A DNA stretch of 46,639 nt from a virus (Duplodnaviria; Heunggongvirae; Uroviricota; Caudoviricetes). Below are positions 3,135-38,300 of the stretch, piece after piece (the stretch's first letter is position 1; the number at the start of each line of letters is the position of its first letter). A model generated the notes under the pieces. It did no database searches and was not told the origin of the DNA. It worked only from the letters and a program-made list of their open reading frames with translations. Position numbers and translations under genes: made by a program. The DNA lies in IMG/VR virus record IMGVR_UViG_2529293141_000012, one strand, 5' to 3'.

Positions 3135-3737
3135 ATGAGCTATTTTCTGCGCAAAAAATGGATGGTAAATTTGTCCGGGTCAGGAAAAATTTTATGGGCG
3201 CTAAACATGAAAAAAGATTCGTATCCTTATTTGATTTGCATGACAGTTTCAGGGCTGATCTTTATTTTCCTTTTCTTCTGGTGGCGGGCAGATATCTACA
3301 GGGTCACGTTTCTTAATCAGAGTATATCCCACTATTACATTCTGTTTAGCATGGGAATAGCTTTTCTGTTATCTCTGTTTTGGGTTAAGAAGGGGATAGT
3401 AAAACAAAGCGGCTGGAAGAGTCTGTCAGCATACCTTAAGGTTTATGCAGGGATGTGCATATTTGCTGGATTTTTTCTGATTATACCCCTTACGACACTA
3501 ACTTATTTTTTGCCTGGAGAGACATCGTCTTATGTTGCACCGTATCGGTATACTTCCGGTAGTTCAAAAAGTTGTTCTGGAGCTGAGGTGGATGACCCCG
3601 ATCTACATGAGAATATTCGCATTTGCTATCCGTATGGCAATTATGAGTACGATAATATTATCTATGTTGAAAAGAAAATTAATATATTAGGTGCGGTAGT
3701 GACATATGCACAGACCGCGCGTGATGATACTGAATGA
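3135..3737 (+). CDS. Hypothetical integral membrane protein (accessory moron, opposite to the early-left operon)
   Basis: 200-aa ORF in AT-rich DNA; three predicted TM helices (e.g. LICMTVSGLIFIFLFFWW) plus a Cys/Tyr-rich C-terminal domain; alternative start at 3207 (MKKDSYPY…); a stem-loop follows at about 3770-3795. Confidence 0.55.
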   Translation: MSYFLRKKWMVNLSGSGKILWALNMKKDSYPYLICMTVSGLIFIFLFFWWRADIYRVTFLNQSISHYYILFSMGIAFLLSLFWVKKGIVKQSGWKSLSAYLKVYAGMCIFAGFFLIIPLTTLTYFLPGETSSYVAPYRYTSGSSKSCSGAEVDDPDLHENIRICYPYGNYEYDNIIYVEKKINILGAVVTYAQTARDDTE

Positions 3738-4169: not shown

Positions 4170-4267
4170 CTTTCATTAATCCCTGAATTGTTGGTTAATA
4201 CGCTTGAGGGTGAATGCGAATAATAAAAAAGGAGCCTGTAGCTCCCTGATGATTTTGCTTTTCATGT

Positions 4268-4751: not shown

Positions 4752-4912
4752 ACAGCTCCCCGTTTATTATTTATCTCCTCAGCCAGCCGCTGTGCTTTCA
4801 GGGGATTTCTGATAACAGAAAGGCCGGGAAATACCCAGCCTCGCTTTGTAATGGAGTAGACGAAAGTGATCGCGCCTACCCGGATATTATCGTGAGGATG
4901 CGTCATCGCCAT
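4724..4912 (-). CDS. Small early-left protein, lambda orf60a-like
   Basis: 60-62 aa ([28 protein letters not shown]…); start overlaps the exo stop as in lambda. Confidence 0.55.
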
Positions 4913-5583
4913 TGCTCCCCAAATACAAAACCAATTTCAGCCAGTGCCTCGTCCATTTTTTCGATGAACTCCGGCACCATCTCGTCAAAACTCGCCATGT
5001 AATTTTCATCCCGCTCAACCACGACATAATGCAGGCCTTCACGCTTCATTCGTGGGTCATAGTTGGCAAAGTACCAGGCATCTTTTCGCGTCACCCACAT
5101 GCTGTACTGCACCTGGGCCATGTAAGCCGACTTTATGGCCTCGAAACCACCGAGCCGGAATTTCATGAAATCCCGGGAGGTAAACGGGCATTTCAGTTCA
5201 AGGCCGTTGCCGTCACTGCATAAACCATCGGGAGAGCAGGCGGTGCGCATACTTTCGTCGCGATAGATGATCGGGGATTCAGTAACATTCACGCCGGAAG
5301 TAAACTCAAACAGGGCTCTGGCGTCGTTCTCGTACTGTTTTCCCCAGGCCAGCGCCTTAGCATTAACTTCCGGAGCCACACCGGTGCAAACCTCAGCCAG
5401 CAGGGTGTGGAAGTAGGACATTTTCATGTCAGGCCACTTCTTTCCTGAGCGGGGCTTTGCTATCACGTTGTGAACTTCTGAAGCGGTGATGACGCCGAGC
5501 CGTAATTTGTGCCATGCATCATCCCCCTGTTCGACAGCTCTCACGTCGATCCCGGTACGCTGCAGGATAATGTCCGGTGTCAT
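4903..5583 (-). CDS. exo: Lambda exonuclease (Red-alpha)
   Basis: 226 aa, [40 protein letters not shown]… matches recalled lambda Exo. Confidence 0.97.
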
Positions 5584-6365
5584 GCTGCCACCTTCTGCTC
5601 AGTGGCTTTCTGTTTCAGGAATCCAAGAGCTTTCACTGCTTCGGCCTGTGTCAGTTCTGACGATGCGCGAATGTCGCGGCGAAATATCTGGGAACAGAGC
5701 GGCAATAAGTCGTCATCCCATGTTTTATCCAGGGCGATCAGCAGAGTGTTAATCTCCTGCATGGTTTCATCGTTAACCGGAGTGATGTCGCGTTCCGGCT
5801 GACGTTCTGCAGTGTATGCGGTATTTTCGACAATGCGCTCGGCTTCATCCTTGTCATAGATACCAGCAAATCCGAAGGCCAGACGGGCACACTGAATCAT
5901 GGCTTTATGACGTAACATCCGTTTGGGATGCGACTGCCACGGTCCGGTGATTTCTCTGCCTTCGCGGGTTTTGAATGGTTCGCGGCGGCATTCATCCATC
6001 CACTCGGTAACGCAGATCGGATGATTGCGGTCCTTGCGGTAAATCCGGCATGTGCAGGATTCATTGTCCTGCTCAAAGTCCATACCATCAAACTGCTGGT
6101 TTTCATTGATGATGCGGGACCAGCCATCAACGCCCACCACCGGAACGATGCCGTTCTGCTTATCAGGGAAGGCGTAAATTTCTTTCGTCCACGGATTAAG
6201 GCCGTACTGGTTGGCGACGATCAGCAATGCGATGAACTGCGCATCGCTGGCATCGCCTTTAAATGCCGTCTGGCGAAGAGTGGTGATCAGTTCCTGTGGG
6301 TCGACAGAATCCATGCCGACACGTTCAGCCAGCTTCCCAGCCAGCGTTGCGAGTGCTGTACTCAT
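5580..6365 (-). CDS. bet: Recombination protein Bet (Red-beta)
   Basis: 261 aa, [41 protein letters not shown]… matches lambda Bet. Confidence 0.97.
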
Positions 6366-6370
6366 CCGTT

Positions 6371-6667
6371 TTATACCTCTGAATCAATATCAACCTGATG
6401 GTGAGCAATGGTTTCAACCATGTACCGGATGTGTTCTGCCATGCGCTCCTGAAACTCAACATCGTCATCAAATGCACGGGTAATGGCTTTTTTGCTGGCC
6501 CCGCAGCGTTGTAAATGATCGATGCAGAGCGATTCAAACAAATGCTGGGGCAGGCCTTTGTCCATGTCGTCTGCCAGTTCTGCCTCTTTCTCTTCACGGG
6601 CGATCTGCTGGTAGTGACGCGCCCAGCTCTGAGCCTCAAGACGATCCTGAATGTAATAAGCGTTCAT
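6371..6667 (-). CDS. gam: Gam (RecBCD inhibitor), short 98-aa form only
   Basis: [31 protein letters not shown]… equals the lambda GamS portion; upstream in-frame sequence reaches a stop without any start codon. Confidence 0.9.
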
Positions 6668-6743
6668 GGCTGAACTCCTGAAAATGGCTGTGAAAATATC
6701 GCCCGCGAAATGCCAGGCTGATTAGGAAAACAAGAAAGGGGGG

Positions 6744-7034
6744 TTAGTGATTCAGGCCGTTACCGCGTCCGTCGAGAAAAACTTCCACGAGCAAATCACG
6801 GGTATAAGTGCGCTCGATGCCGCGATGCAGATAAAGCCGTCCGCGTAAATTAGCTGATGCAGTCCAGGTACCATCTTTGTGTTTGACCAGCATTCCTGGC
6901 ATGACCGCACCTCGATTAACGGTCTGCGTTCCGTAATGTTGATGAACCATAAAAACTCCTGCCCGTAAGCTGGGCTGCTGAACATATAAAGACTTCTGCG
7001 CGTATTCAGGCGGTGGATGGCCGCCGGTTGTCAT
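6744..7034 (-). CDS. Hypothetical 96-aa protein, the only ORF between gam and the putative PL (N/kil/cIII position)
   Basis: ORF in the PL-proximal position; no arginine-rich motif like lambda N; weak SD; could be a leader-region artefact. Confidence 0.3.
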   Translation of the reverse strand: MTTGGHPPPEYAQKSLYVQQPSLRAGVFMVHQHYGTQTVNRGAVMPGMLVKHKDGTWTASANLRGRLYLHRGIERTYTRDLLVEVFLDGRGNGLNH

Positions 7035-7229
7035 AACTAAGCCGCCTCGTTGAAGCGACTAAGGTATGAAATGTTGAGTTAATTTCAGCTGGTCACACCG
7101 ACGTTCACGCGTCCGTTTCACCCCTCGCACTCCCCGAAGCCTGCTGAAATTCAAACTGCGGATCTAAGCGGTCATCGCAACGGTGAATCAGGTGGTTGCC
7201 GTATCGTTGTGTTGTTGCGATATGGTGAT

Positions 7230-7340
7230 AATAGCTATTGCTATTGGTGATATCAATACTTATTGCTATTAGTTGATGTGTTTTGATATTAAATGTTTGA
7301 TAGCAAAAAGAATTAATTTTGTGACTTGCATCGCATAGCG
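7230..7340 (-). promoter_or_regulatory. Putative OL/PL operator-promoter region
   Basis: Repeated ATTGCTATT motifs (also found in the cI-cro intergenic region), AT-rich, immediately downstream of the rex-position terminator. Confidence 0.3.
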
Positions 7341-7394
7341 ATAACTGAAGTGAGGTGTGGTGGTTTTTTGGACGGTTTGTGTGATGAGGGGAGG

Positions 7395-7425
7395 CAAAAG
7401 AAAACCCGGCACTGGGGCCGGGTTT
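7395..7425 (-). terminator. Intrinsic terminator ending the repressor-operon transcript
   Basis: Hairpin CCCGGC-ACTGGG-GCCGGG followed on the minus strand by TTTTCTTTTG. Confidence 0.55.
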
Positions 7426-7500
7426 AGATGGATAAGAAAGGGTAATAGGGAATGAAAAATCGCTTTGCGTAATGCAAGGTGGCGAGCAGTTTCTTAAGCA

Positions 7501-7941
7501 CTAAAGAAAAAAGTACATTGATAGCTTATAAAGACCTGTTCCTGCAGCGATGATTGCTGGAACACCAAGCAATACCGCAAGCTTTGCGTCTGAAATCTTT
7601 CTATCGACAGCATCGATGGAGGGTTTTTTGGCTAGTGAATCTTTTATTGAATCGAGTCGCTCCAGAACAGCGATCATGTTTCTGTCGATAGATTTGACAT
7701 CTGTCTTAAGCTCATCAACGTCACGTCGGATATAGGACACATCAGACTCAAGCTTTGCAACTTTCGATTCAAGCACATTATTACTCCCAGAGCCACCGCT
7801 ACCACTTGATTGTAGCATAGGTACATTACCGCCAGACATACCAGCTGATTGAGAAAATGCTGCAGTGTGCAAAGATGATGATCTTGCCGCTTGTTCAAGC
7901 TTTTCAGTTAGGTTTGGAGCTTCGTAATAACCGTGTTTCAT
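7501..7941 (-). CDS. Hypothetical tail-anchored membrane protein with coiled coil (rexB position)
   Basis: 146 aa; Gly/Ser-rich N-terminus, heptad-like segment LESKVAKLESDVSYIRRDVDELKTDVKSIDRNMIAVLERLDSIKDSL, C-terminal TM helix LAVLLGVPAIIAAGTGLYKL; AT-rich; co-oriented downstream of cI. Confidence 0.6.
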   Translation of the reverse strand: MKHGYYEAPNLTEKLEQAARSSSLHTAAFSQSAGMSGGNVPMLQSSGSGGSGSNNVLESKVAKLESDVSYIRRDVDELKTDVKSIDRNMIAVLERLDSIKDSLAKKPSIDAVDRKISDAKLAVLLGVPAIIAAGTGLYKLSMYFFL

Positions 7942-7949
7942 TGTTAATA

Positions 7950-8219
7950 TTATGACTTATTGGTTTTAGCTCTATCATGCTGATCGCGAATAAAGTCAGC
8001 GAGTTTAAGCATTAAATCTTCCGTCATGCGAATTGTTGCAATGTTGTACTTTACGTTTTCAGTGTCATTACTACCATCAGCGCCCCATTCTGTAACATGC
8101 TGAAAGAAAGATATGGAGCCTAAGCGATCGTCATCTTCCCCAAAAGATGAATATCCAAATGCATCAGCATATGCATCTACACAGTTATTTGATTTTTTTA
8201 TAAGTTTTTTATCACTCAT
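7950..8219 (-). CDS. Hypothetical acidic 89-aa protein (rexA position)
   Basis: ORF directly downstream of the repressor gene, 9 nt upstream of the membrane-protein gene; no recognisable family. Confidence 0.5.
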   Translation of the reverse strand: MSDKKLIKKSNNCVDAYADAFGYSSFGEDDDRLGSISFFQHVTEWGADGSNDTENVKYNIATIRMTEDLMLKLADFIRDQHDRAKTNKS

Positions 8220-8298
8220 TTTTGCCTTTCCCGTAATGTTATTTTTATAAAGAATTCTTTCAGCGCATTACCCAAAAGCCTCATCAGCACGCAGCTGA

Positions 8299-8991
8299 TT
8301 ATCCGTGTTTCCTATACGTCTGCGGCATACTGCCAATAACCTTCCCGAAAATGAACACCCGGTTCATCTCGTCTTTCTCGATCGGGTCCCACGGTGAGTA
8401 GCTCTTGTTATCAGAGATAACCAGTAGCTTATCTTTCATCATTTGCAGGCGCTTTACATGGGCTGTGTCGTCGTACAGAAACGCATAGATACCATCACCG
8501 TCGAAAGATTTAACCGTGATATCAACGAACAGCAGATCACCTGGTTCGATCGTTCCTGACATGCTGTCACCGCGCACGTTAATGATGCGGATATTTTCCG
8601 CCTTCCTGCCATCGAACATGTGACGAGCATCGTCAAACGAGTACTCAACCGAGCGTAGAACTTCCACAAACTCACGGTTGATGACACCCGGTCCGGCACT
8701 GACTTCTATATCAAGAACGTCAATCTTGAAGTATTTTGAATGGCTGACAGCAGGCTTCCCTGATTGTTGACCGTCATTTCTCATCGGGCCTATGCCTGAT
8801 GAGAGCCATTCTGTTCGAACACCCAATGCATTAGCTATTTCAACAATTTTTGTTGAGCCGCGCGCGTTGCCGCTTGTCAGTCTCCAGATTGTGGGTTGAG
8901 CTACGCCAGACGCCTTTGCAAGAGCGCCTTGAGACATTCCAGATTGTTCCATCGCTAGGTTTAAGCGATCAGCAAGAGTTTCTTTTTTCAT
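8299..8991 (-). CDS. cI: CI-like prophage repressor (HTH plus S24 LexA-like peptidase domain)
   Basis: N-terminal HTH (MSQGALAKASGVAQPTIWRL), C-terminal GDSM…K autocleavage motifs; ATG at 8991 has no SD (leaderless, as for lambda PRM); ORF-track frame extends to a TTG at 9027. Confidence 0.85.
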   Translation of the reverse strand: MKKETLADRLNLAMEQSGMSQGALAKASGVAQPTIWRLTSGNARGSTKIVEIANALGVRTEWLSSGIGPMRNDGQQSGKPAVSHSKYFKIDVLDIEVSAGPGVINREFVEVLRSVEYSFDDARHMFDGRKAENIRIINVRGDSMSGTIEPGDLLFVDITVKSFDGDGIYAFLYDDTAHVKRLQMMKDKLLVISDNKSYSPWDPIEKDEMNRVFIFGKVIGSMPQTYRKHG

Positions 8992-8999
8992 AAGTTTTA

Positions 9000-9095
9000 A
9001 TTTATACGCTTGCGTATTGATGGTCAAAACACGTTTTGCTATTGCTTGGGTTAATACGCATTGCTATTATTCATTCATTGCAATACCAATAGGAA
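9000..9095. promoter_or_regulatory. Putative OR operators with divergent PRM/PR-like promoters
   Basis: Intergenic region between divergent repressor and cro; near-palindrome ATACGCTTGCGTAT and repeated TTGCTATT / ATTGCAATA motifs. Confidence 0.45.
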
Positions 9096-9101
9096 TTGAT
9101 A

Positions 9102-9329
9102 ATGACAAATCAAACCATTCAACTCGCAATCAGTATTACAGGTAGTCAAAAACGACTGGCAGATCTATGCGGTGTAGCCCAACCCACAGTTTGGCGTTGG
9201 CTACACGGTGGCGGAATTGATGCCCGCTATGTAATGAAAATTGTCTCAGCCACTGGTGGAAAGATTAAACCAGCAGATATTCGTCCCGACCTCGCACCAT
9301 TGTTTAACGCGAGTAATTCTGCCGCCTAA
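9102..9329 (+). CDS. cro: Cro-like HTH regulator
   Basis: 75 aa from the ATG at 9102 (AGGA 7 nt upstream); HTH QKRLADLCGVAQPTVWRW; divergent from the repressor. Confidence 0.65.
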   Translation: MTNQTIQLAISITGSQKRLADLCGVAQPTVWRWLHGGGIDARYVMKIVSATGGKIKPADIRPDLAPLFNASNSAA

Positions 9330-9353
9330 ACTGCGGCGTTAACTGATAAGGCA

Positions 9354-9899
9354 ATGACTATGCAACCACTTACATACCAACAGACTAGCGGATTTAGCCC
9401 GACTGCGGTGATAAATCGTTCTCAAACAAAACAGGCGCCAGGCCACGAAAAAATCCGTGATGCCGTTCGCGCCTGGTCGGCTGCAGATAATCAGGATGTT
9501 GTTGCCGCACTCATTGTGAATGAGTATCGGGAGCAGGGCGGCGGCACCATCGATTTCCCTGATGATGTCAGCCGTGCACGCCAGAAGCTGTTCCGCTTCC
9601 TCGATAACAAATTCGATTCTGAAAAATACCGAAATAACGTGCGTGAACTGACCCCGGCAATTCTGGCGGTACTACCGCTGGAATATCGCGGCCACCTGGT
9701 TGAGCAGGATAGCTACATGGCTCGGCTGGCTGAAATGGAAAAGGAACTCAGTGAGGCAAAACAGGCTGTCATTCTCAACGCACCACGCCACCAGAAACTG
9801 AAGGAGATGAGTGAAGGCATTGTGTCGATGTTTCGTGTGGACCCGGATTTGGCTGGTCCACTGATGGCGATGGTCACCACCATGCTGGGGGCAATATGA
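9354..9899 (+). CDS. Hypothetical 181-aa protein in the cII position (possibly a CII/CP76-type regulator)
   Basis: Located between cro and O where lambdoid phages carry cII, but about twice the size of lambda CII; family assignment is from memory only. Confidence 0.45.
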   Translation: MTMQPLTYQQTSGFSPTAVINRSQTKQAPGHEKIRDAVRAWSAADNQDVVAALIVNEYREQGGGTIDFPDDVSRARQKLFRFLDNKFDSEKYRNNVRELTPAILAVLPLEYRGHLVEQDSYMARLAEMEKELSEAKQAVILNAPRHQKLKEMSEGIVSMFRVDPDLAGPLMAMVTTMLGAI

Positions 9900-9985
9900 C
9901 AGGTTCGGAAATGGCGAAAGCCGGTCTGCGCGAACAGAACCGACTTTCAGGTGCAAATCGTAACACACTCATTGCGGGAGGAATT

Positions 9986-10915
9986 ATGGCAAACACTGCT
10001 GAGATATTCAATTTTCCAGTGCCGGATGTGGCACAAAAGGAGCGGCGCGTGGCAGATCTCGACGATGGTTATACGCGCATTGCAAATGAGTTGCTGGAAG
10101 CTGTGATGCTGGCCGGATTAACACAGCACCAGCTTCTGGTCTTCCTGGCTGTCATGCGCAAAACATATGGCTTTAATAAAAGACTGGATTGGGTGAGCAA
10201 CGAGCAACTTTCCGAATTGACCGGGATATTGCCGAACAAGTGTTCTGCTGCAAAAAGCGTTCTGGTAAAGCGTGGGATTCTTATTCAGAGCGGGCGGAAT
10301 ATCGGCATTAATAATGTGGTCAGTGAATGGTCAACATTACCCGAATCAGGTAAGAAAAATAAAGTTTACCTGAAAGAGGTAAATTTACCTGAATCAGGTA
10401 AGAAAAGTTTACCCAAATCAGGTAAAGGCGTTTACCCGAATCAGGTAAACACAAAAGACAAACTAACAAAAGACAATATAAAACCTTTTTCGTCCGAGAA
10501 TTCTGACGAATCCTCTGACCAGCCAGAAAACGATCTTCCTGTGATGAAACCGGATGCTGCAATTCAGAGCGGCAGCAAGTGGGGGACAGCAGAAGACCTG
10601 ACCGCCGCAGAGTGGATGTTTGACAAGGTGAAGACCATCGCGCCATCAGCCAGAAAACCGAATTTTGCAGGGTGGGCTAACGATATCCGCCTGATGCGTG
10701 AACGTGATGGACGTAACCACCGCGACATGTGCGTGCTGTTCCGCTGGGCATGCCAGGACAACTTCTGGTCCGGTAACGTGCTGAGTCCGGCTAAACTCCG
10801 CGACAAGTGGACCCAGCTCGAAATCAACCGTAACAAGCAACAGGCTGGCGTGACAGCCAGAAAACCAAAACTCGACCTGACAAACACTGACTGGATTTAC
10901 GGGGTGGATTTATGA
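9986..10915 (+). CDS. O: Replication initiator O
   Basis: N-terminus RVADLDDGY… and the internal iteron-coded segment resemble lambda O; strong SD GGGAGG before the ATG at 9986; C-terminal domain near-identical to lambda (matching lambda P downstream). Confidence 0.9.
   Translation: MANTAEIFNFPVPDVAQKERRVADLDDGYTRIANELLEAVMLAGLTQHQLLVFLAVMRKTYGFNKRLDWVSNEQLSELTGILPNKCSAAKSVLVKRGILIQSGRNIGINNVVSEWSTLPESGKKNKVYLKEVNLPESGKKSLPKSGKGVYPNQVNTKDKLTKDNIKPFSSENSDESSDQPENDLPVMKPDAAIQSGSKWGTAEDLTAAEWMFDKVKTIAPSARKPNFAGWANDIRLMRERDGRNHRDMCVLFRWACQDNFWSGNVLSPAKLRDKWTQLEINRNKQQAGVTARKPKLDLTNTDWIYGVDL
10336..10490. repeat. Origin of replication: four or five about 19-bp iterons (TTTACCYGAATCAGGTAAR) plus an A-rich tract inside O
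   Basis: Direct repeats visible in the sequence followed by CACAAAAGACAAACTAACAAAAGACAATATAAAACC, the classic ori-lambda layout. Confidence 0.8.
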
Positions 10916-11613
10916 AAAACATCGCCGCACAGATGGTTAACTTTGACCGTGAGCAGATGCGTCGGATCGCCAACAACATGCCGGAACAGTACGACGAAAA
11001 GCCGCAGGTACAACAGGTAGCGCAGATCATCAACGGTGTGTTCAGCCAGTTACTGGCAACTTTCCCGGCGAGCCTGGCTAACCGTGACCAGAATGAACTG
11101 AACGAAATCCGCCGCCAGTGGGTTCTGGCTTTCCGGGAAAACGGGATCACCACAATGGAACAGGTTAACGCAGGAATGCGCGTAGCCCGTCGGCAGAATC
11201 GACCATTCCTGCCATCACCCGGGCAGTTTGTCGCCTGGTGCCGGGAAGAAGCATCCGTTAACGCCGGGCTGCCAAACGTCAGCGAGCTGGTTGATATGGT
11301 TTACGAGTATTGCCGGAAGCGTGGCCTGTATCCGGATGCAGAGTCTTATCCGTGGAAATCGAACGCGCATTACTGGCTGGTTACCAACCTGTACCAGAAC
11401 ATGCGGGCCAATGCGCTTACTGATGCGGAATTACGGCGCAAGGCTGCCGATGAACTGTCCTGTATGACCGCGCGAATTAACCGTGGTGAGGCGATACCTG
11501 AACCAGTAAAACAGCTTCCTGTCATGGGCGGTAGACCTCTAAATCGTGCACAGGCTCTGGCGAAGATCGCAGAAATCAAAGCTAAGTTTGGGCTGAAAGG
11601 AGCAAGTGTATGA
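10912..11613 (+). CDS. P: Replication protein P (DnaB helicase loader)
   Basis: 233 aa, MKNIAAQMVNFDREQMRRIANNMPEQYDEKPQVQQ… near-identical to lambda P. Confidence 0.97.
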   Translation: MKNIAAQMVNFDREQMRRIANNMPEQYDEKPQVQQVAQIINGVFSQLLATFPASLANRDQNELNEIRRQWVLAFRENGITTMEQVNAGMRVARRQNRPFLPSPGQFVAWCREEASVNAGLPNVSELVDMVYEYCRKRGLYPDAESYPWKSNAHYWLVTNLYQNMRANALTDAELRRKAADELSCMTARINRGEAIPEPVKQLPVMGGRPLNRAQALAKIAEIKAKFGLKGASV

Positions 11614-11783
11614 CGGGCAAAGAGGCAATTATTTATTACCTGGGGACGCATAAGAGTTTCTGTGCGCAGGACGTTGCTGCGGCAACAGGTGTGACAGTAA
11701 CCTGCATAAATCAGGCAGCAGCTAAAATGGCGCGTGCAGGAATCCTGGTCATTGATGGTAAGGTCTGGCGAACGTTTGTTTAA
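11610..11783 (+). CDS. ren: Ren, C-terminally truncated (57 aa versus about 96 in lambda)
   Basis: My own translation MTGKEAIIYYLGTHKSFCAQDVAAATGVTVTCINQAAAKMARAGILVIDGKVWRTFV; homology ends at the junction with AT-rich inserted DNA. Confidence 0.6.
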   Translation: MTGKEAIIYYLGTHKSFCAQDVAAATGVTVTCINQAAAKMARAGILVIDGKVWRTFV

Positions 11784-11929
11784 CGGTTAGCTACTCAGGA
11801 TGATAGGGCGCGGCAAGTGAGTATGAAGCGGATTTTCAGGAATGCCATCAGAGTTTGGAAATAAAGTGGGTTTTCTAGTGGCAAGAGACTTGATAATATT
11901 TAGTTCTTTGAAGCCAAGGAGATAGGGTT

Positions 11930-12424
11930 ATGAGAAAATTTATTTTAGCCTTTGTCATAAGTGCCTCGTTTACAGCAAATGCTGGTGTAGAGAAGTTAGG
12001 GCCGTGGATAACAAAGTCTGAGATAAATAAAATGACTGACCAGACTGACTTTGTGGCTCTTAATTTATCACCAGATTCATATAACAAAGCAGGTACTGAT
12101 CGTGCAACTTCACTGGTGTTGCGTTGTAGTGATAACAAAACAGATGCCTATTTATCATTCAATGATTATATGGGTTCGGACAACCCAAGAATTACAGTGC
12201 GGTTAGATGGCGGAAAGCCGGTCAAGAGTGTTTGGGGTGGTGGGGAAGGCGGTGATTCTGCATTTGCTCCACAACCAATACAATTTATAAAGACCTTGGC
12301 TAAGCATAAAAAAGCCATTTTTGGGTTTGAACCTTATGGATCAACTATGCAAGTAGTTGAGTTTGACTTGTCTGAGATTGATAAGGTTGTGGAAAAAATT
12401 TCACAGTCTTGCAATTGGAAATGA
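11930..12424 (+). CDS. Hypothetical secreted protein (Sec signal peptide), accessory moron
   Basis: 164 aa, signal peptide MRKFILAFVISASFTANA; strong SD AAGGAG; AT-rich; intrinsic terminator immediately downstream. Confidence 0.6.
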   Translation: MRKFILAFVISASFTANAGVEKLGPWITKSEINKMTDQTDFVALNLSPDSYNKAGTDRATSLVLRCSDNKTDAYLSFNDYMGSDNPRITVRLDGGKPVKSVWGGGEGGDSAFAPQPIQFIKTLAKHKKAIFGFEPYGSTMQVVEFDLSEIDKVVEKISQSCNWK

Positions 12425-12443
12425 CAAAAAAATTTCATATGAA

Positions 12444-12468
12444 CCCAGTTGGCGCTGGGTTTTTTATT
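12444..12468 (+). terminator. Intrinsic terminator after the secreted-protein gene
   Basis: Hairpin CCCAG-TTGGCG-CTGGG followed by TTTTTTAT. Confidence 0.55.
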
Positions 12469-12888
12469 TCAGTAGCCAATAATGCATTCAAAATCTCTTA
12501 CTTGAGAAACGGCCTATTTGAGATTTCAGTCGTGGCAGGATGATCAGTTGATTCGAGTATTGACGCATTTACGTTCTGAACGGCTGTAATAAAGTTGCGG
12601 GAGAGAAATGCCGCTAGTATTTTGTAATTAATTGAATGCCGACGGTTTAATGAGAAGTCAAGAACACTACTTGTACTATAATCGTTCGATGTTAGTGAGG
12701 GTTTGATGCAAAAAATGAAGTGATTGACCCTAAATTTGCGCGATCAGCGACAGATTGTACACCGAGATCCTGTGGGCTGGAATTTGCAGAGAAATACCGA
12801 AAATGATATCCAATATTGTTTTCAGTTCCTACATCATACCTGATAAGGGTATAATCATAAAAATTAGGATAATTCAAGTTATAATTGT

Positions 12889-13305
12889 ATGAATAAAAAC
12901 GACCTTGAAGCATTATCTGACACTAGGCTTAATGAGGCCAAATGCTTGCTTGATCATGGCTTTTTTCATGGTGCATATTATCTTTGTGGGTATGCAGTTG
13001 AATGTGCATTGAAGGCCTGTATTGCCAAGTCATTTTTACAACATGAGTTTCCAAACAAAAAAGTCGTAAATGATTCATATACTCATGATTTGTCGCAACT
13101 TCTCAAAATTGCCAACTTACATCAAATTTTGATTGCTGACGCAAAAAATGATGTTTCGTTGGAGATTAACTGGTCGGTCGTTAAAGACTGGAGCGAGCAA
13201 TTTAGATACGACAATAACATAAGTAAAGCTATGGCCGAACAATTGTTTGATGCTGTAGGTGACCAAAATTCTGGAGTTTTGAAATGGGTAAAAGCACACT
13301 GGTAA
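12889..13305 (+). CDS. HEPN-domain-like protein (putative toxin or abortive-infection effector)
   Basis: 138 aa; helix GAYYLCGYAVECALKACIAK and downstream THDLSQLL resemble the HEPN fold signature; AT-rich; TATAAT about 35 nt upstream. Confidence 0.55.
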   Translation: MNKNDLEALSDTRLNEAKCLLDHGFFHGAYYLCGYAVECALKACIAKSFLQHEFPNKKVVNDSYTHDLSQLLKIANLHQILIADAKNDVSLEINWSVVKDWSEQFRYDNNISKAMAEQLFDAVGDQNSGVLKWVKAHW

Positions 13306-13685
13306 TCGGCAGAGAGTTGACAAAAGATATGGAATTCTCAGGTCAATTTTTATTAAAAAAACTCAAGTTACAGAATTTAACCATTGATGCTGCAATGTGG
13401 TTTTATTACCCAGATCTATCTTGGAGATATATTTTAGTTATCAGTGACTTCTCAGAACGTGGACCGGCAGAAATATATAGAAAAATCAGTGAGATAAATA
13501 GAAACAGCATATCAAAAAAGTATAAGCCGATACCATTAGAAGCAATTGAGGCTAAGGGGGATTCAGCTTTTATTTATAAAATGTTAAAAGGATTTGCTAG
13601 AGTCAACGATGGTAAAGTTCGCGTTTCTAATTCTATGGTAAATGGTTTAGAAATCGTTGACTGTCTGATCTATGAGTTAAAATAA
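13284..13685 (+). CDS. Hypothetical partner protein, translationally coupled to the HEPN-like gene
   Basis: 133-aa ORF overlapping the upstream gene by 22 nt with SD GGAG; no recognisable family; stem-loop at about 13761-13785 downstream. Confidence 0.45.
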   Translation: MGKSTLVIGRELTKDMEFSGQFLLKKLKLQNLTIDAAMWFYYPDLSWRYILVISDFSERGPAEIYRKISEINRNSISKKYKPIPLEAIEAKGDSAFIYKMLKGFARVNDGKVRVSNSMVNGLEIVDCLIYELK

Positions 13686-13906
13686 GAAATCTCTTGCTGG
13701 GTATCATTATTGTTTAAATGACTTTTGATTTTCAATAATCAACTTGTCATAATTAAGTCACCGGAGTTTGAACTCCTCCGGTGACTTCTGCGCTAAACGG
13801 GGACGTTTATGCGCACATACAATCCAAACTCTCTTCTCCCTTCACAGATGCAGAAATGCACCTGCGATATCTTGCATCCAGCGTTTGATCTCTGCGGAGG
13901 TGAAGC

Positions 13907-30432: not shown

Positions 30433-33004
30433 ACCGGTAGGCGATCTGGTCGTTGATTTGAGTCTGGATGCGGCCAGATTTGACGAGCAGATGGCCAGAG
30501 TCAGGCGTCATTTTTCCGGTACGGAAAGTGATGCGAAAAAAACAGCGGCAGTCGTTGAACAGTCGCTGAGCCGACAGGCGCTGGCTGCACAGAAAGCGGG
30601 GATTTCCGTCGGGCAGTATAAAGCCGCCATGCGTATGCTGCCTGCACAGTTCACCGACGTGGCCACGCAGCTTGCAGGCGGGCAAAGTCCATGGCTGATC
30701 CTGCTGCAACAGGGTGGTCAGGTTAAGGACTCCTTCGGCGGGATGATCCCCATGTTTAGGGGGCTTGCCGGTGCGATCACCCTGCCGATGGTGGGGGCCA
30801 CCTCGCTGGCGGTGGCGACCGGTACGCTGGCGTATGCCTGGTATCAGGGCAACTCAACCCTGTCCGATTTCAACAAAACGCTGGTCCTTTCCGGCAATCA
30901 GGCGGGACTGACGGCAGATCGTATTCTGGCCCTGTCCAGAGCCGGGCAGGCGGCAGGGCTGACGTTTAACCAGACCAGCGAGTCACTGACGGCGCTGGTG
31001 AATGCCGGTGTGCGTGGTGGTGAGCAGTTTGAGGCGATCAGCCAGAGTGTGGCGCGTTTCTCCTCTGCATCCGGCGTGGAGGTGGACAAGGTCGCTGAAG
31101 CCTTCGGGAAGCTGACCACAGACCCGACGTCGGGACTGACAGCGATGGCACGTCAGTTCCATAACGTGACGGCGGAGCAGATTGCGTATGTTGCTCAGTT
31201 GCAGCGTTCCGGAGATGAAGCCGGGGCATTGCAGGCGGCGAACGAGGCCGCAACGAAAGGGTTTGATGACCAGACCCGCCGCCTGAAAGAGAACATGGGC
31301 ACGCTGGAGACCTGGGCAGACAGGACAGCACGGGCATTCAAATCCATGTGGGATTCGGTGCTGGATATTGGTCGCCCGGACACTGCCCGGGAAATGCTGG
31401 AGAAAGCAGAAAAGGCTTTTGATGAGGCGGACAAAAAATGGCAGTGGTATCAGAGCCGGAGCCACCGGCGCGGTAAAACATCCGCATTTCTTGCCAATCT
31501 CCGGGGAGCATGGGAGGACAGAGCGAATGCGCAACTTGGGCTTTCAGCCGCCACGTTGCAGGCCGATCTTGAAAAGGCCAGAGAGATGGCAGCAAAGGAC
31601 TGGGCCGAGTCTGAGGCATCACGGCTGAAATATACCGAAGAGGCGCAGAAGGCTTATGAACGCCTGCAGACGCCGCTGGAGAAATATACCGCCCGTCAGG
31701 AAGAACTGAACAAGGCACTGAAGGACGGGAAAATTCTGCAGGCAGATTACAACACGCTGATGGCGGCGGCGAAAAAGGACTATGAAGCGACGCTGAAAAA
31801 GCCGAAACAGTCCGGCGTGAAGGTGTCTGCGGGCGATCGTCAGGAAGACAGTGCTCATGCTGCCCTGCTGACGCTTCAGGCTGAACTCCGGACGCTGGAG
31901 AGGCATGCCGGAGCGAATGAGAAAATCAGCCAGCAGCGCCGGGATTTGTGGAAGGCGGAGAGTCAGTTCGCGGTACTGGAGGAGGCGGCGCAACGTCGCC
32001 AGCTGTCTGCACAGGAGAAATCCCTGCTGGCGCATAAAGATGAGACGCTGGAGTACAAACGCCAGCTGGCTGCACTTGGCGACAAGGTTACGTATCAGGA
32101 GCGCCTGAACGCGCTGGCGCAGCAGGCGGATAAATTCGCACAGCAGCAACGGGCAAAACGGGCCGCCATTGATGCGAAAAGCCGGGGGCTGACTGACCGG
32201 CAGGCAGAACGGGAAGCCACGGAACAGCGCCTGAAGGAACAGTATGGCGATAATCCGCTGGCGCTGAATAACGTCATGTCAGAGCAGAAAAAGACCTGGG
32301 CGGCTGAAGACCAGCTTCGCGGGAGCTGGATGGCAGGCCTGAAGTCCGGCTGGAGTGAGTGGGAAGAGAGCGCCACGGACAGTATGTCGCAGGTAAAAAG
32401 TGCAGCCACGCAGACCTTTGATGGTATTGCACAGAATATGGCGGCGATGCTGACCGGCAGTGAGCAGAACTGGCGCAGCTTCACCCGTTCCGTGCTGTCC
32501 ATGATGACAGAAATTCTGCTTAAGCAGGCAATGGTGGGGATTGTCGGGAGTATCGGCAGCGCCATTGGCGGGGCTGTTGGTGGCGGCGCATCCGCGTCAG
32601 GCGGTACAGCCATTCAGGCCGCTGCGGCGAAATTCCATTTTGCAACCGGAGGATTTACGGGAACCGGCGGCAAATATGAGCCAGCGGGGATTGTTCACCG
32701 TGGTGAGTTTGTCTTCACGAAGGAGGCAACCAGCCGGATTGGCGTGGGGAATCTTTACCGGCTGATGCGCGGCTATGCCACCGGCGGTTATGTCGGTACA
32801 CCGGGCAGCATGGCAGACAGCCGGTCGCAGGCGTCCGGGACGTTTGAGCAGAATAACCATGTGGTGATTAACAACGACGGCACGAACGGGCAGATAGGTC
32901 CGGCTGCTCTGAAGGCGGTGTATGACATGGCCCGCAAGGGTGCCCGTGATGAAATTCAGACACAGATGCGTGATGGTGGCCTGTTCTCCGGAGGTGGACG
33001 ATGA
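30425..33004 (+). CDS. H: Tail tape-measure protein H
   Basis: 859 aa, matches lambda gpH over most of its length. Confidence 0.97.
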   Translation: MAEPVGDLVVDLSLDAARFDEQMARVRRHFSGTESDAKKTAAVVEQSLSRQALAAQKAGISVGQYKAAMRMLPAQFTDVATQLAGGQSPWLILLQQGGQVKDSFGGMIPMFRGLAGAITLPMVGATSLAVATGTLAYAWYQGNSTLSDFNKTLVLSGNQAGLTADRILALSRAGQAAGLTFNQTSESLTALVNAGVRGGEQFEAISQSVARFSSASGVEVDKVAEAFGKLTTDPTSGLTAMARQFHNVTAEQIAYVAQLQRSGDEAGALQAANEAATKGFDDQTRRLKENMGTLETWADRTARAFKSMWDSVLDIGRPDTAREMLEKAEKAFDEADKKWQWYQSRSHRRGKTSAFLANLRGAWEDRANAQLGLSAATLQADLEKAREMAAKDWAESEASRLKYTEEAQKAYERLQTPLEKYTARQEELNKALKDGKILQADYNTLMAAAKKDYEATLKKPKQSGVKVSAGDRQEDSAHAALLTLQAELRTLERHAGANEKISQQRRDLWKAESQFAVLEEAAQRRQLSAQEKSLLAHKDETLEYKRQLAALGDKVTYQERLNALAQQADKFAQQQRAKRAAIDAKSRGLTDRQAEREATEQRLKEQYGDNPLALNNVMSEQKKTWAAEDQLRGSWMAGLKSGWSEWEESATDSMSQVKSAATQTFDGIAQNMAAMLTGSEQNWRSFTRSVLSMMTEILLKQAMVGIVGSIGSAIGGAVGGGASASGGTAIQAAAAKFHFATGGFTGTGGKYEPAGIVHRGEFVFTKEATSRIGVGNLYRLMRGYATGGYVGTPGSMADSRSQASGTFEQNNHVVINNDGTNGQIGPAALKAVYDMARKGARDEIQTQMRDGGLFSGGGR

Positions 33005-33330
33005 AGACCTTCCGCTGGAAAGTGAAACCCGGTATGGATGTGGCTTCGGTCCCTTCTGTAAGAAAGGTGCGCTTTGGTGATGGCTATTCTCAGCGAGCGC
33101 CTGCCGGGCTGAATGCCAACCTGAAAACGTACAGCGTGACGCTTTCTGTCCCCCGTGAGGAGGCCACGGTACTGGAGTCGTTTCTGGAAGAGCACGGGGG
33201 CTGGAAATCCTTTCTGTGGACGCCGCCTTATGAGTGGCGGCAGATAAAGGTGACCTGCGCAAAATGGTCGTCGCGGGTCAGTATGTTGCGTGTTGAGTTC
33301 AGCGCAGAGTTTGAACAGGTGGTGAACTGA
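33001..33330 (+). CDS. M: Tail tip protein M
   Basis: 109 aa, matches lambda. Confidence 0.95.
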   Translation: MKTFRWKVKPGMDVASVPSVRKVRFGDGYSQRAPAGLNANLKTYSVTLSVPREEATVLESFLEEHGGWKSFLWTPPYEWRQIKVTCAKWSSRVSMLRVEFSAEFEQVVN

Positions 33331-35376: not shown

Positions 35377-38300
35377 ATGGGTAAAGGCAGCAGTAAGGGG
35401 CATACCCCGCGCGAAGCGAAGGACAACCTGAAGTCCACGCAGTTGCTGAGTGTGATCGATGCCATCAGCGAAGGGCCGGTTGAAGGTCCGGTGGAGGGAT
35501 TAAAAAGTGTGCTGCTGAACAGTACGCCGGTGCTGGACACTGAGGGGAATACCAACATCTCCGGCGTCACGGTGGTGTTCCGGGCCGGTGAGCAGGAGCA
35601 GACACCGCCGGAGGGATTTGAATCCTCCGGTTCCGAGACGGTGCTGGGTACGGAAGTGAAATACGACACGCCGATCACCCGGACCATCACGTCGGCAAAC
35701 ATTGACCGACTGCGTTTTACCTTCGGCGTGCAGGCACTGGTGGAAACCACCTCAAAGGGGGATCGGAATCCGTCGGAAGTCCGCCTGCTGGTTCAGATAC
35801 AACGTAACGGTGGCTGGGTGACGGAAAAAGACATCACCATTAAGGGCAAAACCACCTCGCAGTATCTGGCCTCGGTGGTGGTGGATAACCTGCCGCCGCG
35901 CCCGTTTAATATCCGGATGCGCAGAATGACGCCGGACAGCACCACAGACCAGCTGCAGAACAAAACGCTCTGGTCGTCATACACCGAAATCATCGATGTG
36001 AAACAGTGCTACCCGAACACGGCACTGGTCGGCGTGCAGGTGGATTCGGAGCAGTTCGGCAGCCAGCAGGTGAGCCGTAATTATCATCTTCGCGGGCGCA
36101 TTCTGCAGGTGCCGTCGAATTATAACCCGCAGACGCGGCAATACAGCGGTATCTGGGACGGAACGTTAAAACCGGCATACAGCAACAACATGGCCTGGTG
36201 TCTGTGGGATATGCTGACCCACCCGCGCTACGGCATGGGAAAACGTCTTGGTGCGGCAGATGTGGATAAATGGGCGCTGTATGTCATCGGCCAGTACTGC
36301 GACCAGTCAGTGCCGGACGGCTTTGGTGGCACGGAGCCGCGCATCACCTGTAATGCGTACCTGACCACACAGCGTAAAGCGTGGGATGTGCTCAGTGATT
36401 TTTGCTCGGCGATGCGCTGTATGCCGGTATGGAACGGGCAGACGCTGACGTTCGTGCAGGACAGACCGTCGGATAAGGTGTGGACCTATAACCGCAGTAA
36501 TGTGGTGATGCCGGATGATGGTGCGCCATTCCGCTACAGCTTCAGCGCCCTGAAAGACCGCCATAATGCCGTTGAGGTGAACTGGATTGACCCGAACAAC
36601 GGCTGGGAGACGGCAACAGAGCTCGTGGAGGACACGCAGGCCATTGCCCGTTACGGTCGTAATGTCACGAAGATGGATGCCTTTGGCTGTACCAGCCGGG
36701 GGCAGGCGCACCGCGCCGGGCTGTGGCTGATTAAAACGGAACTGCTGGAAACGCAGACCGTGGACTTCAGCGTGGGTGCAGAAGGGCTTCGCCATGTACC
36801 GGGCGATGTCATTGAAATCTGTGATGATGACTATGCCGGTATCAGCACCGGCGGGCGCGTGCTGGCGGTGAACAGCCAGACCCGGACGCTGACGCTCGAC
36901 CGTGAAATCACGCTGCCATCTTCCGGCACCACGCTGATAAGCCTGGTTGACGGGCAGGGGAATCCGGTGAGCGTGGAGGTCCAGTCCGTCACTGACGGCG
37001 TGAAGGTGAAAGTGAGCCGTGTTCCTGACGGCGTTGCCGAATACAGCGTGTGGGGACTGAAGCTGCCGACGCTGCGCCAGCGCCTGTTCCGCTGCGTGAG
37101 TATCCGTGAGAACGACGACGGCACGTATGCCATCACCGCCGTGCAGCATGTACCTGAAAAAGAGGCCATCGTGGATAACGGGGCGCACTTTGACGGCGAC
37201 CAGAGCGGCACGGTGAATGGTGTCACGCCGCCCGCGGTGCAGCACCTGACCGCCGAAGTCACCGCAGACAGCGGGGAATATCAGGTGCTGGCGCGCTGGG
37301 ACACGCCGAAGGTGGTGAAGGGCGTGAGCTTCCTGCTCCGTCTGACCGTAACAGCGGATGACGGCAGTGAGCGGCTGGTCAGCACGGCCCGGACGACGGA
37401 AACCACATACCGCTTCACGCAGCTGGCGCTGGGGAACTACAGGCTGACAGTCCGGGCGGTAAATGCGTGGGGGCAGCAGGGCGATCCGGCGTCGGTATCG
37501 TTCCGGATTGCCGCACCGGCAGCGCCGTCACGGATTGAGCTGACGCCGGGCTATTTTCAGATAACCGCCACGCCGCATCTTGCGGTTTATGACCCGACGG
37601 TACAGTTTGAGTTCTGGTTCTCGGAAAAGCGGATTACCGATATCAGGCAGGTTGAAACCACAGCCCGCTATCTTGGTACGGCGCTGTACTGGATAGCCGC
37701 CAGTATCAATATCAAACCGGGCCATGATTATTATTTTTACGTTCGCAGTGTGAACACCGTTGGCAAATCGGCATTCGTGGAGGCTGTTGGTCAGCCGAGT
37801 GATGACGCATCCGGCTATCTGGATTTTTTCAAAGGCGAGATAGGGAAAACCCATCTGGCTCAGGAGCTGTGGACGCAGATTGATAACGGTCAGCTTGCGC
37901 CTGACCTGGCTGAAATCAGGACATCCATTACGGATGTCAGCAATGAAATCACACAGACCGTCAATAAGAAACTGGAAGACCAGAGTGCAGCGATCCAGCA
38001 GATACAGAAGGTTCAGGTTGATACAAATAATAATCTGAACAGCATGTGGGCTGTGAAGCTGCAGCAGATGCAGGATGGACGCCTTTATATTGCGGGTATC
38101 GGTGCCGGTATTGAGAACACCCCTGACGGCATGCAGAGTCAGGTGCTGCTGGCGGCGGACAGGATTGCGATGGTTAATCCTGCGAATGGCAACACAAAAC
38201 CGATGTTTGTTGGTCAGGGCGATCAGATATTCATGAACGACGTGTTCCTGAAACGCCTGACGGCCCCCACCATTACCAGCGGTGGAAATCCACCGGCATT

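Follow-up and report, generated by a model that had tools for sequence, protein, structure and literature searches.

A lambdoid early-left region without N that encodes Kil and carries a conserved leader RNA, a candidate antitermination element

The early-left control region of this phage occupies the minus strand between a cI-type repressor gene and the recombination gene gam, within the 46,639-nt stretch of DNA analysed here (the window). Its features are listed in Table 1. The repressor gene is followed by two ORFs at the position held by rex in lambda and by the intrinsic terminator of their common transcript, which is 91% identical to lambda 35794-35826, the sequence directly 3' of rexB. 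The OL/pL segment beyond it (7272-7222) is of a non-lambda type. The top promoter match of the region, agreeing at 10 of 12 positions, is taken as pL, and its transcript would begin at about 7221; the operator repeats that overlap it recur in the OR region (9016-9070; repeat families D1 and D4). Downstream of gam lie bet and exo of lambda type. From the gam start (6667) to the cI-operon terminator the interval measures 734 bp, in agreement with the ~730 bp given in an earlier note on this DNA, and in the pL sense it contains just one ORF of 60 aa or longer, the 96-aa frame (6744-7034) that was also noted then and that has no arginine-rich motif. The pR side has cro and cII genes of YdaS/YdaT type, which are separated by 24 nt and followed by O and P (Pfam, PHROG). 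The lambda-like gene set is complete in the window. Q is of the non-lambda PF06530 type, a Pfam class that is compatible with the '82-type' Q proposed earlier.

Table 1. Features of the early-left region and its surroundings, in window coordinates.
Feature	Position	Strand	Basis or remark
cI-type repressor	8299-9027	minus	S24 peptidase + HTH (Pfam)
Two 'rex-position' ORFs	7950-8219, 7501-7941	minus	no assigned function (Pfam, PHROG)
Intrinsic terminator of the transcript of cI and the two 'rex-position' ORFs, tIMM equivalent	7425..7402	minus	scan: 9-bp stem + T-run
OL operators overlapping pL	7222..7272	minus	TTGCTATT motif repeats
pL	-35 TTGATA 7256-7251, 17-nt spacer, -10 TATTAT 7233-7228	minus	promoter scan
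pL leader, ~270 nt, untranslated	7221 to 6951	minus	
C-rich, G-poor 5' end of pL transcript	7177..7221	minus	composition, alifold
Element X, non-coding, conserved, 99 nt	7078..7176	minus	G-rich core CGGGGAGUGCGAGGGGUG
X helix A	7161-7155 with 7140-7134	minus	two compensatory pairs
X helix P1, possible	7151-7143 with 7089-7081	minus	invariant
X hairpin P3	7116-7110 with 7103-7097, extension 7122-7120 with 7093-7091	minus	one compensatory pair
Conserved covarying hairpin	7037..7063	minus	3' arm contains GAG(G), would-be Shine-Dalgarno of uORF
uORF start (ATG 7034, MTTGGHPPP..)	7009..7034	minus	overlaps second hairpin GGCGG-CCAUCCA-CCGCC, 7025..7009
kil, 68 aa (probable start)	6744..6950	minus	AGGAG Shine-Dalgarno 6960-6956
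End of lambda-homologous block, 83 bp	6668..6750	minus	remnant lambda kil 3' end + GamL leader
gam, 98-aa GamS form	6371-6667	minus	Pfam PF06064 Gam, E 1.6e-63; lambda homology

Homology identifies the 96-aa ORF as Kil, of the type found in phi80 and, as KilR, in Rac. It matches PHROG 294 ('Kil protein for bacterial septation inhibition') with an E value of 1.2e-38, and in blastp comparisons the last 68 residues show 85% identity with Kil of HK225, 41% with phi80 Kil (E 5e-16) and 36% with Rac KilR (E 9e-13). The interval had been described as lacking recognisable N, kil, cIII, ral and sieB. This description holds for N, cIII, ral and sieB, and for Kil of the lambda family, which is distinct from that of the window protein and gives no blastp match to it, but the homology search of the 96-aa ORF, which extends over the whole protein, overturns it for kil. 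The true start of kil is probably at 6950, giving the 68-aa form that is annotated in RefSeq genomes and in phage 4A7; the longer frame appears because, in the window lineage, a short upstream ORF (uORF) is joined in frame to kil. Rac KilR is known to inhibit FtsZ and cell division (PMC12482147, PMC5793797), making the Kil of the window a putative FtsZ/cell-division inhibitor.

The likeness to Rac extends beyond the protein. There too a KilR-family toxin heads the early-left operon (kilS-kilR), the cro/cII pair on the other side is of the YdaS/YdaT type, and the kil 5' UTR holds a non-coding RNA feature. In Rac, unlike here, the repressor gene and kilR are separated by sieB, ydaF and ydaG. The Rac kilR 5' UTR yields the sRNA KilS (PMC8175672), and kilR expression is limited by Rho/NusG (PMC5793797). 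No sequence similarity was found between the window leader and either the Rac leader or KilS.

Homology relationships identify the region as a mosaic, in which a non-lambda OL/pL and a phi80/Rac-type kil are joined to gam-bet-exo of lambda type. Window positions 4855-6750 correspond to lambda 31300-33193 at 97% identity. Since lambda homology runs up to 6750, the mosaic junction lies there, adjoining the kil stop codon, and not near 6690 as previously placed; the matches to Stx phages stop at query position 83. The start codon of GamL lies beyond this junction, and the GamL extension is closed by a stop, as the earlier note had recognised; this stop is found 18 codons 5' of the gam Met. The map position between gam and OL/pL is the same as in lambda, and exo-bet-gam as well as the tL3 and tIMM terminators are lambda-derived (97% and 91% identity). 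By contrast, the 2.4-kb lambda segment 33193-35582 (kil-cIII-ea10-ral-sieB-N) is replaced by ~470 bp in the window, and both N and boxA/boxB of lambda are absent from this region.

Upstream of kil the leader contains a block (7071-7009) that is homologous to the block 5' of kil in phi80, HK225 and HK639. It is composed of the motif CATACCT, a hairpin (7063..7037) and then the start of the uORF, ATG ACA ACC GGC GGC CAT CCA CCG CC. These last 26 nt are identical among phi80, HK225, HK639 and the window, and the alignment gives the uORF of the three named phages a length of 20-21 aa and a stop of its own. The hairpin has a fold z-score of -3.3. Across 25 diverse sequences 98% of its cells are paired, 7 pairs have changed on both sides, and 62 cells are compensatory as against 20.6 in shuffles and far fewer in slid controls; the conserved U-G pairs indicate that it forms in the sense-strand RNA. 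In 83 of the 90 contexts that are not of the window type, an intrinsic terminator (in phi80, tL1A) ends with its T-run directly 5' of the block, and in five the block comes directly after putL. That terminator is absent 5' of the block in all 65 distinct window-type contexts, and the tL1 that relatives have between pL and kil is missing from the window. The probable task of the covarying hairpin and the PPP-containing uORF is to adjust translation of kil or the access of Rho, and not antitermination.

The delayed-early genes of lambdoid phages are reached by means of N and nut or, in HK022, of put RNA. put acts in cis on RNA polymerase, through the beta' zinc-binding domain, and suppresses terminators without protein factors. 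Both the put and the nut systems have one left and one right copy. Neither the interval nor the early-operon ORFs scanned gave a match to the N family in Pfam or PHROG. Searches for boxA (CGCTCTTA / TGCTCTTTAACA) at 1-2 mismatches found none in the pL leader or near cro, the only sites at this threshold being three isolated ones inside kil, a moron ORF and ninB; nor was there a boxB, or indeed any sequence, common to the pL leader and the pR operon. The RfaH ops element (GGCGGTAGnnTG) is likewise absent from the early operons within 1 mismatch. The put core motif has 0 matches in the window at up to 3 mismatches. A put covariance model built from 18 put sequences collected from IMG/VR recovered its positive controls with 98.7 bits (HK022 putL), 74.9 bits (HK022 putR) and 89 bits (HK639 putL), and scored at most 11 bits in the window, with nothing in the early region. 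Since there is no N protein and no nut site, early-left expression must be N-independent. The earlier note had suggested an unrecognised antiterminator or an N-independent mechanism, with HK022-type put as an example, and had singled out an N-family protein or canonical nut sites as the findings that would speak against it. Neither of these was found and the N-independence is borne out, but put of the HK022 type has to be given up in view of the covariance scores. Earlier work has remarked on lambdoid phages without N and has named put as a guess (PMC12315714).

Between pL and the hairpin block lies a conserved non-coding element that we call X. It is preceded by the 5' end of the pL transcript, which has 15 C and 5 G in its first 40 nt, may form a stem AUCGCAAC/GUUGCGAU (alifold) and is putatively rut-like. 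This transcript start resembles those of the pL leaders of phi80, HK639, Kluyvera and Citrobacter ('CATCGnAAC..'). The core of X is near-invariant in 40 E. coli haplotypes. A diverged homologue with ~82% identity, which we term L294-type, is present in 15 IMG/VR loci; until it was first found by nhmmer over fetched loci, the remaining ~150 nt of the leader seemed unique. Comparison of the window-type with the L294-type X gives three compensatory pairs (two in helix A, one in P3) and none in slid controls. The P3 loop is wholly different between the two types and the core CGGGGAGUGCGAGGGGUG is identical. Helix P1, which would make a pseudoknot with helix A, is unproven because it is invariant. 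The fold energy of X is unexceptional (z -1.2), and the stability of the whole-leader fold is uninformative (z ~0). Two degenerate-pattern scans of IMG/VR returned no more distant relatives of X, and the covariation evidence is therefore limited to two lineages.

A covariance model of X finds exactly one copy per phage. The window has no second X by this model, and none was detected at pR in those loci for which 5-11 kb of flanking sequence were available; nor is there an X in HK639, phi80, HK225, HK022, Rac or the kil loci of other genera. These last comprise prophages of Kluyvera, Citrobacter, Silvania and Enterobacter, where pL lies 85-220 nt from a kil homologue, without N and without X. 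A cmscan of positions 6000-13000 against Rfam 15, at E up to 10, gave no match in the leader (7005-7221), and neither X nor the hairpin block was found described in Rfam or in the literature open to searching, which did not include King 2011.

The L294-type loci place X in a wider context. The sequence 5' of X in these loci is common to HK639, phi80, HK225 and Enterobacter ENT1, and that 3' of X is common to HK639 and ENT1; X occupies the slot that is taken by putL in HK639 and by an rrn-like boxA in phi80/HK225. On its 3' side follow cargo genes that vary from locus to locus (HNH endonuclease, TerB-like, unknowns) and include nothing N-like. One or two strong intrinsic terminators come next, ahead of the hairpin block, kil and the recombination genes. 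No put was found in the L294-type loci on either strand (99.7 kb). X is the only conserved feature that these phages have between pL and the strong terminators before kil and the recombination genes.

These arrangements invite comparison with two sets of phages. The putL of HK022 and HK639 is a cis-acting antiterminator RNA (King et al. 1996; King 2011; both cited through PMC9378689). X is likewise a structured non-coding RNA positioned just 3' of pL in a phage without N, and the flanks of HK639 putL are the flanks of X in L294-type phages, upstream of intrinsic terminators. However, HK022 put consists of two stems in ~70 nt, whereas X has ~99 nt with a G-rich core and matches put in neither sequence nor structure, and the two-copy layout of HK022-type put, at pL and pR, is not found for the single-copy X. 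X resembles put in position but is not a member of the put family. The early-left region of phi80 (pL, boxA-nutL, 'N', tL1A, tL1B, kil) and that of HK225 share with the window a homologous kil (41-85% identity), the same hairpin/uORF block 5' of kil and a related pL transcript start. Their leader, however, is long and includes an rrn-like boxA (TGCTTTTTAACAA), and it is followed by the intrinsic terminator tL1A with an ORF in front of it; none of these is present in the window, where X is found instead. The idea of a put-like RNA, raised in the earlier note, thus survives in its general form, as a structured leader element in the put/nut slot of related leaders whose function is assigned from position only, and does not survive for put itself.

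From the pL start at 7221 to exo there are only weak terminator-like sites. Because tL1 is missing and nothing stronger intervenes, kil, gam, bet and exo would be read from pL itself as soon as repression is lifted, without requiring N, and we consider it probable that they are transcribed in this way. In a processive antitermination device, X would be the component that acts in cis and, like putL, would modify the polymerase that made it. Transcription modified in this manner would pass the tL3 homologue (4842..4820) and a further terminator (4247..4229) toward xis and int. We propose the antitermination role because X sits in the put/nut slot and is, in L294-type phages, the sole conserved feature before strong terminators; on this positional analogy it is a plausible new cis-acting antitermination element. 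To the reading as a whole, that is N-independent pL transcription of kil-gam-bet-exo with X as a putL-like antitermination element, we assign a probability of roughly 0.4. It is a tentative suggestion, and one that may well fail, that X represents a third, hitherto undescribed class of cis-acting early antitermination element in lambdoid phages: interchangeable as a cassette with putL and boxA-nutL at one leader position, unrelated to them in sequence, present as a single pL-proximal copy, and carried in prophages of ~40% of E. coli genomes including O157:H7.

Several observations count against such a role for X. It is a single copy and has no partner at pR, its covariation comes from two lineages only and is accompanied by an unremarkable folding energy, and the kil prophages of other genera run from pL into kil without it. 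The strong terminator of the pR operon (12441-12462), for which no recognisable means of passage was found, counts against it as well. Moreover, as there is no intrinsic terminator between X and exo in the window, X is dispensable there for gam, bet and exo, and could matter only for the two terminators beyond exo.

The main rival explanation, which we regard as plausible while doubting that it is correct, is that there is no processive antitermination. N-independence would result from the loss of tL1, the distal genes would be reached by leaky read-through or have promoters of their own (for example a cII-dependent pI for int), and X would be a 5'-UTR regulator of another kind, acting on RNA stability, Rho loading or kil translation or giving rise to a KilS-like sRNA, or else a hitch-hiking relic. 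The absence of intrinsic terminators between pL and exo, the relatives in other genera that go from pL to kil without X, the lack of a pR partner and the C-rich, G-poor stretches in the leader all favour this explanation, as do the precedents of Rac kilR with its 5'-UTR sRNA KilS (PMC8175672) and its Rho/NusG control (PMC5793797). What it fails to account for is that X occupies precisely the put/nut slot in leaders of the HK639/phi80 type, that kil and the recombination genes of L294-type loci stand behind strong terminators with no other promoter-like site found, and that the lambda-derived terminators downstream have been retained. The positional argument would apply equally if X were a nut-like site for an unrecognised trans-acting antiterminator, whether a phage protein (encoded, for example, in the pR operon or by the 'rex-position' ORFs) or a host factor. 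The G-rich, conserved and single-stranded core could bind a protein, and the annotated 'N' of phi80 is an instance of a non-ARM protein called N in this group. We nevertheless think this unlikely, since X has no conserved companion gene (the genes after it vary by locus, and in the window kil follows directly), the early-region ORFs scanned all belong to families with other roles or to cargo, and there is no boxA for assembly of Nus factors.

Two further possibilities carry far less weight. A hidden N might be sought in the 96-aa ORF or in an arginine-rich mini-ORF of 20-31 aa (7121/7154..7059) as a minimal N-like antiterminator. In favour of the latter, its 'KRTRERRCDQ' is similar to the lambda N motif 'TRRRERRAEKQ', six-frame translation of the window yields the pattern R.RERR a single time, and the GTG start is changed to ATG in one haplotype. 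However, out-of-frame arginine-rich stretches are common (43 in the window), the 96-aa ORF is accounted for as Kil, and the mini-ORF inside X (7121..7059, minus strand, GTG..TAG, MKRTRERRCDQLKLTQHFIP) is not a gene. Its stop is CAG in most of the 40 haplotypes, its frame is broken by a 5-nt insertion in four and its start codon is lost in one, its changes are evenly divided between 4 synonymous and 4 non-synonymous, and in L294-type elements the frame reads GTG TAA. It has no Pfam or PHROG match, and tblastn against 50,697 phage records returns the same locus only. The family searches, tblastn and haplotype analysis effectively refute a hidden N. It is also very improbable that deletions in a defective prophage have merely damaged the region and left its early-left regulation out of order, even though the leader resembles a phi80/HK225-type region minus N and tL1. 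At least 16 isolated phages have the same module, with 91-97% identity over the gam-to-terminator stretch, and the phages with this leader include 4A7 and Perceval (both of the genus Bievrevirus, which includes gut isolates), the PhiR series and Turner. Database records include plaque-forming carriers. The window leader occurs in 2,210 of 5,426 complete E. coli genomes (~40%; 41% when counted for the module), with several immunity types and with no gene annotated on it. It also stands beside other immunity regions, as in an O157:H7 prophage that has an XRE repressor and a SIR2 gene. Occurrence in isolated phages and in so many genomes means that the module is no damaged one-off, and the gene set of the window itself is complete and lambda-like.

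The 96-aa ORF, then, has an ordinary explanation as kil, and it is the leader RNA that is of real interest, in a role that we propose and that is unproven. The phages and prophages that carry it form a very common lambda-like family in E. coli that is viable without N/nut or put and has kept lambda-derived terminators. Should X prove to be an antiterminator RNA, RNA polymerase would be reprogrammed by an RNA that is new; should it not, the family shows a lambda-type circuit running without early antitermination. In either case, the genes governed by the leader are a toxin that putatively inhibits FtsZ and the Red recombination genes, and strains with this arrangement number in the thousands among those sequenced.

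The pR operon of the window has a strong terminator (12441-12462) within an AT-rich cargo island between P and Q, and we recognised no feature in this operon that would overcome it. Terminators are present between P and Q also in Perceval, which is viable and has the same leader. Further along, upstream of ninB, there is a conserved non-coding region (13725-13906). This region was considered as a pR-side partner of X and rejected: it is found in HK639, phi80 and HK225 as well, and being common to put and boxA phages it is not specific to X. It contains a promoter-like site and a 10-bp hairpin.

The pL leaders of the HK639/phi80 type contain a cassette hot spot, in which 5' and 3' flanks common to these leaders enclose one of several alternative cassettes. 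This cassette is the antitermination element putL in HK639, a boxA-type nutL in phi80 and HK225, and a boxA-like sequence accompanied by ~170 nt of uncharacterised sequence in Enterobacter phage ENT1. Element X, the conserved 99-nt structured leader RNA and candidate antitermination element of the window, is a fourth alternative at the same site.

Features of the window and of fetched comparison loci (L-numbers)
Feature	Location	Strand	Remarks
Cassette hot spot, HK639/phi80-type pL leaders	L003 1772-1975; L004 (phi80) 2272-2420; L005 1747-1960; L333 1500-1790; L294 740-960 (reverse strand)		
Gene annotated N, phi80	L004 2686-2982		'early transcription antiterminator protein N'
KilS	L017 (E. 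coli K-12 Rac) 6406-6503		annotated Hfq-associated sRNA; 5' UTR of kilR
Hairpin, uORF and second hairpin	window 7009-7063	-	strong covariation in first hairpin
Gene for 200-aa predicted membrane protein	window 3135-3737	+	between int and early-left genes
Two function-unassigned ORFs	window 7501-7941 and 7950-8219	-	rexA/rexB position
AT-rich cargo island	window 11784-13700		within pR operon, 3' of truncated ren
VasI-like lipoprotein gene	window 11930-12424		cargo island
Strong intrinsic terminator	window 12441-12462		cargo island
HEPN-domain protein gene	window 12889-13305		cargo island
Partner ORF overlapping HEPN-domain gene	window 13284-13685		cargo island
Conserved non-coding region	window 13725-13906		5' of ninB

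The hairpin/uORF block has no Rfam entry. Many IMG/VR phages, as well as phi80, HK225 and HK639, keep it 5' of their kil genes, usually directly 3' of the tL1 terminator. The 3' arm of the covarying hairpin holds probable Shine-Dalgarno bases, and the uORF that follows begins with the poly-proline motif MTTGGHPPP, at which translation could stall without EF-P. KilS of Rac is analogous to the window pL leader in position but not in sequence. The N annotation in phi80 looks unverified: the protein has no Arg-rich stretch at its N-terminus, gave no Pfam matches and belongs to a function-unassigned PHROG.

The rex-position ORFs share a transcript with cI and belong to PHROG 3556, whose protein here has a coiled coil and a hydrophobic segment at its C-terminal end, and PHROG 4231. 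Because the cargo at this position differs among related phages (SIR2, ASCH and transmembrane proteins), it looks like a slot for defence or exclusion genes. The predicted membrane protein near int, which lacks a Pfam family, is probably lysogenic-conversion cargo; its gene opposes the pL operon and has terminator-like hairpins on either side. In the pR operon, the HEPN-domain gene and its overlapping ORF are possibly a toxin-antitoxin or defence pair.

The non-coding region ahead of ninB, which could be relevant to expression of Q without N, contains a perfect hairpin of 10 bp (GTCACCGGAG/CTCCGGTGAC) as well as a sequence resembling a promoter, TTGATT-17-CATAAT, in which the -10 is extended by TG. 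Perceval, HK639, phi80, HK225 and Klebsiella phages share this conserved region, the phi80 counterpart being annotated IR4.
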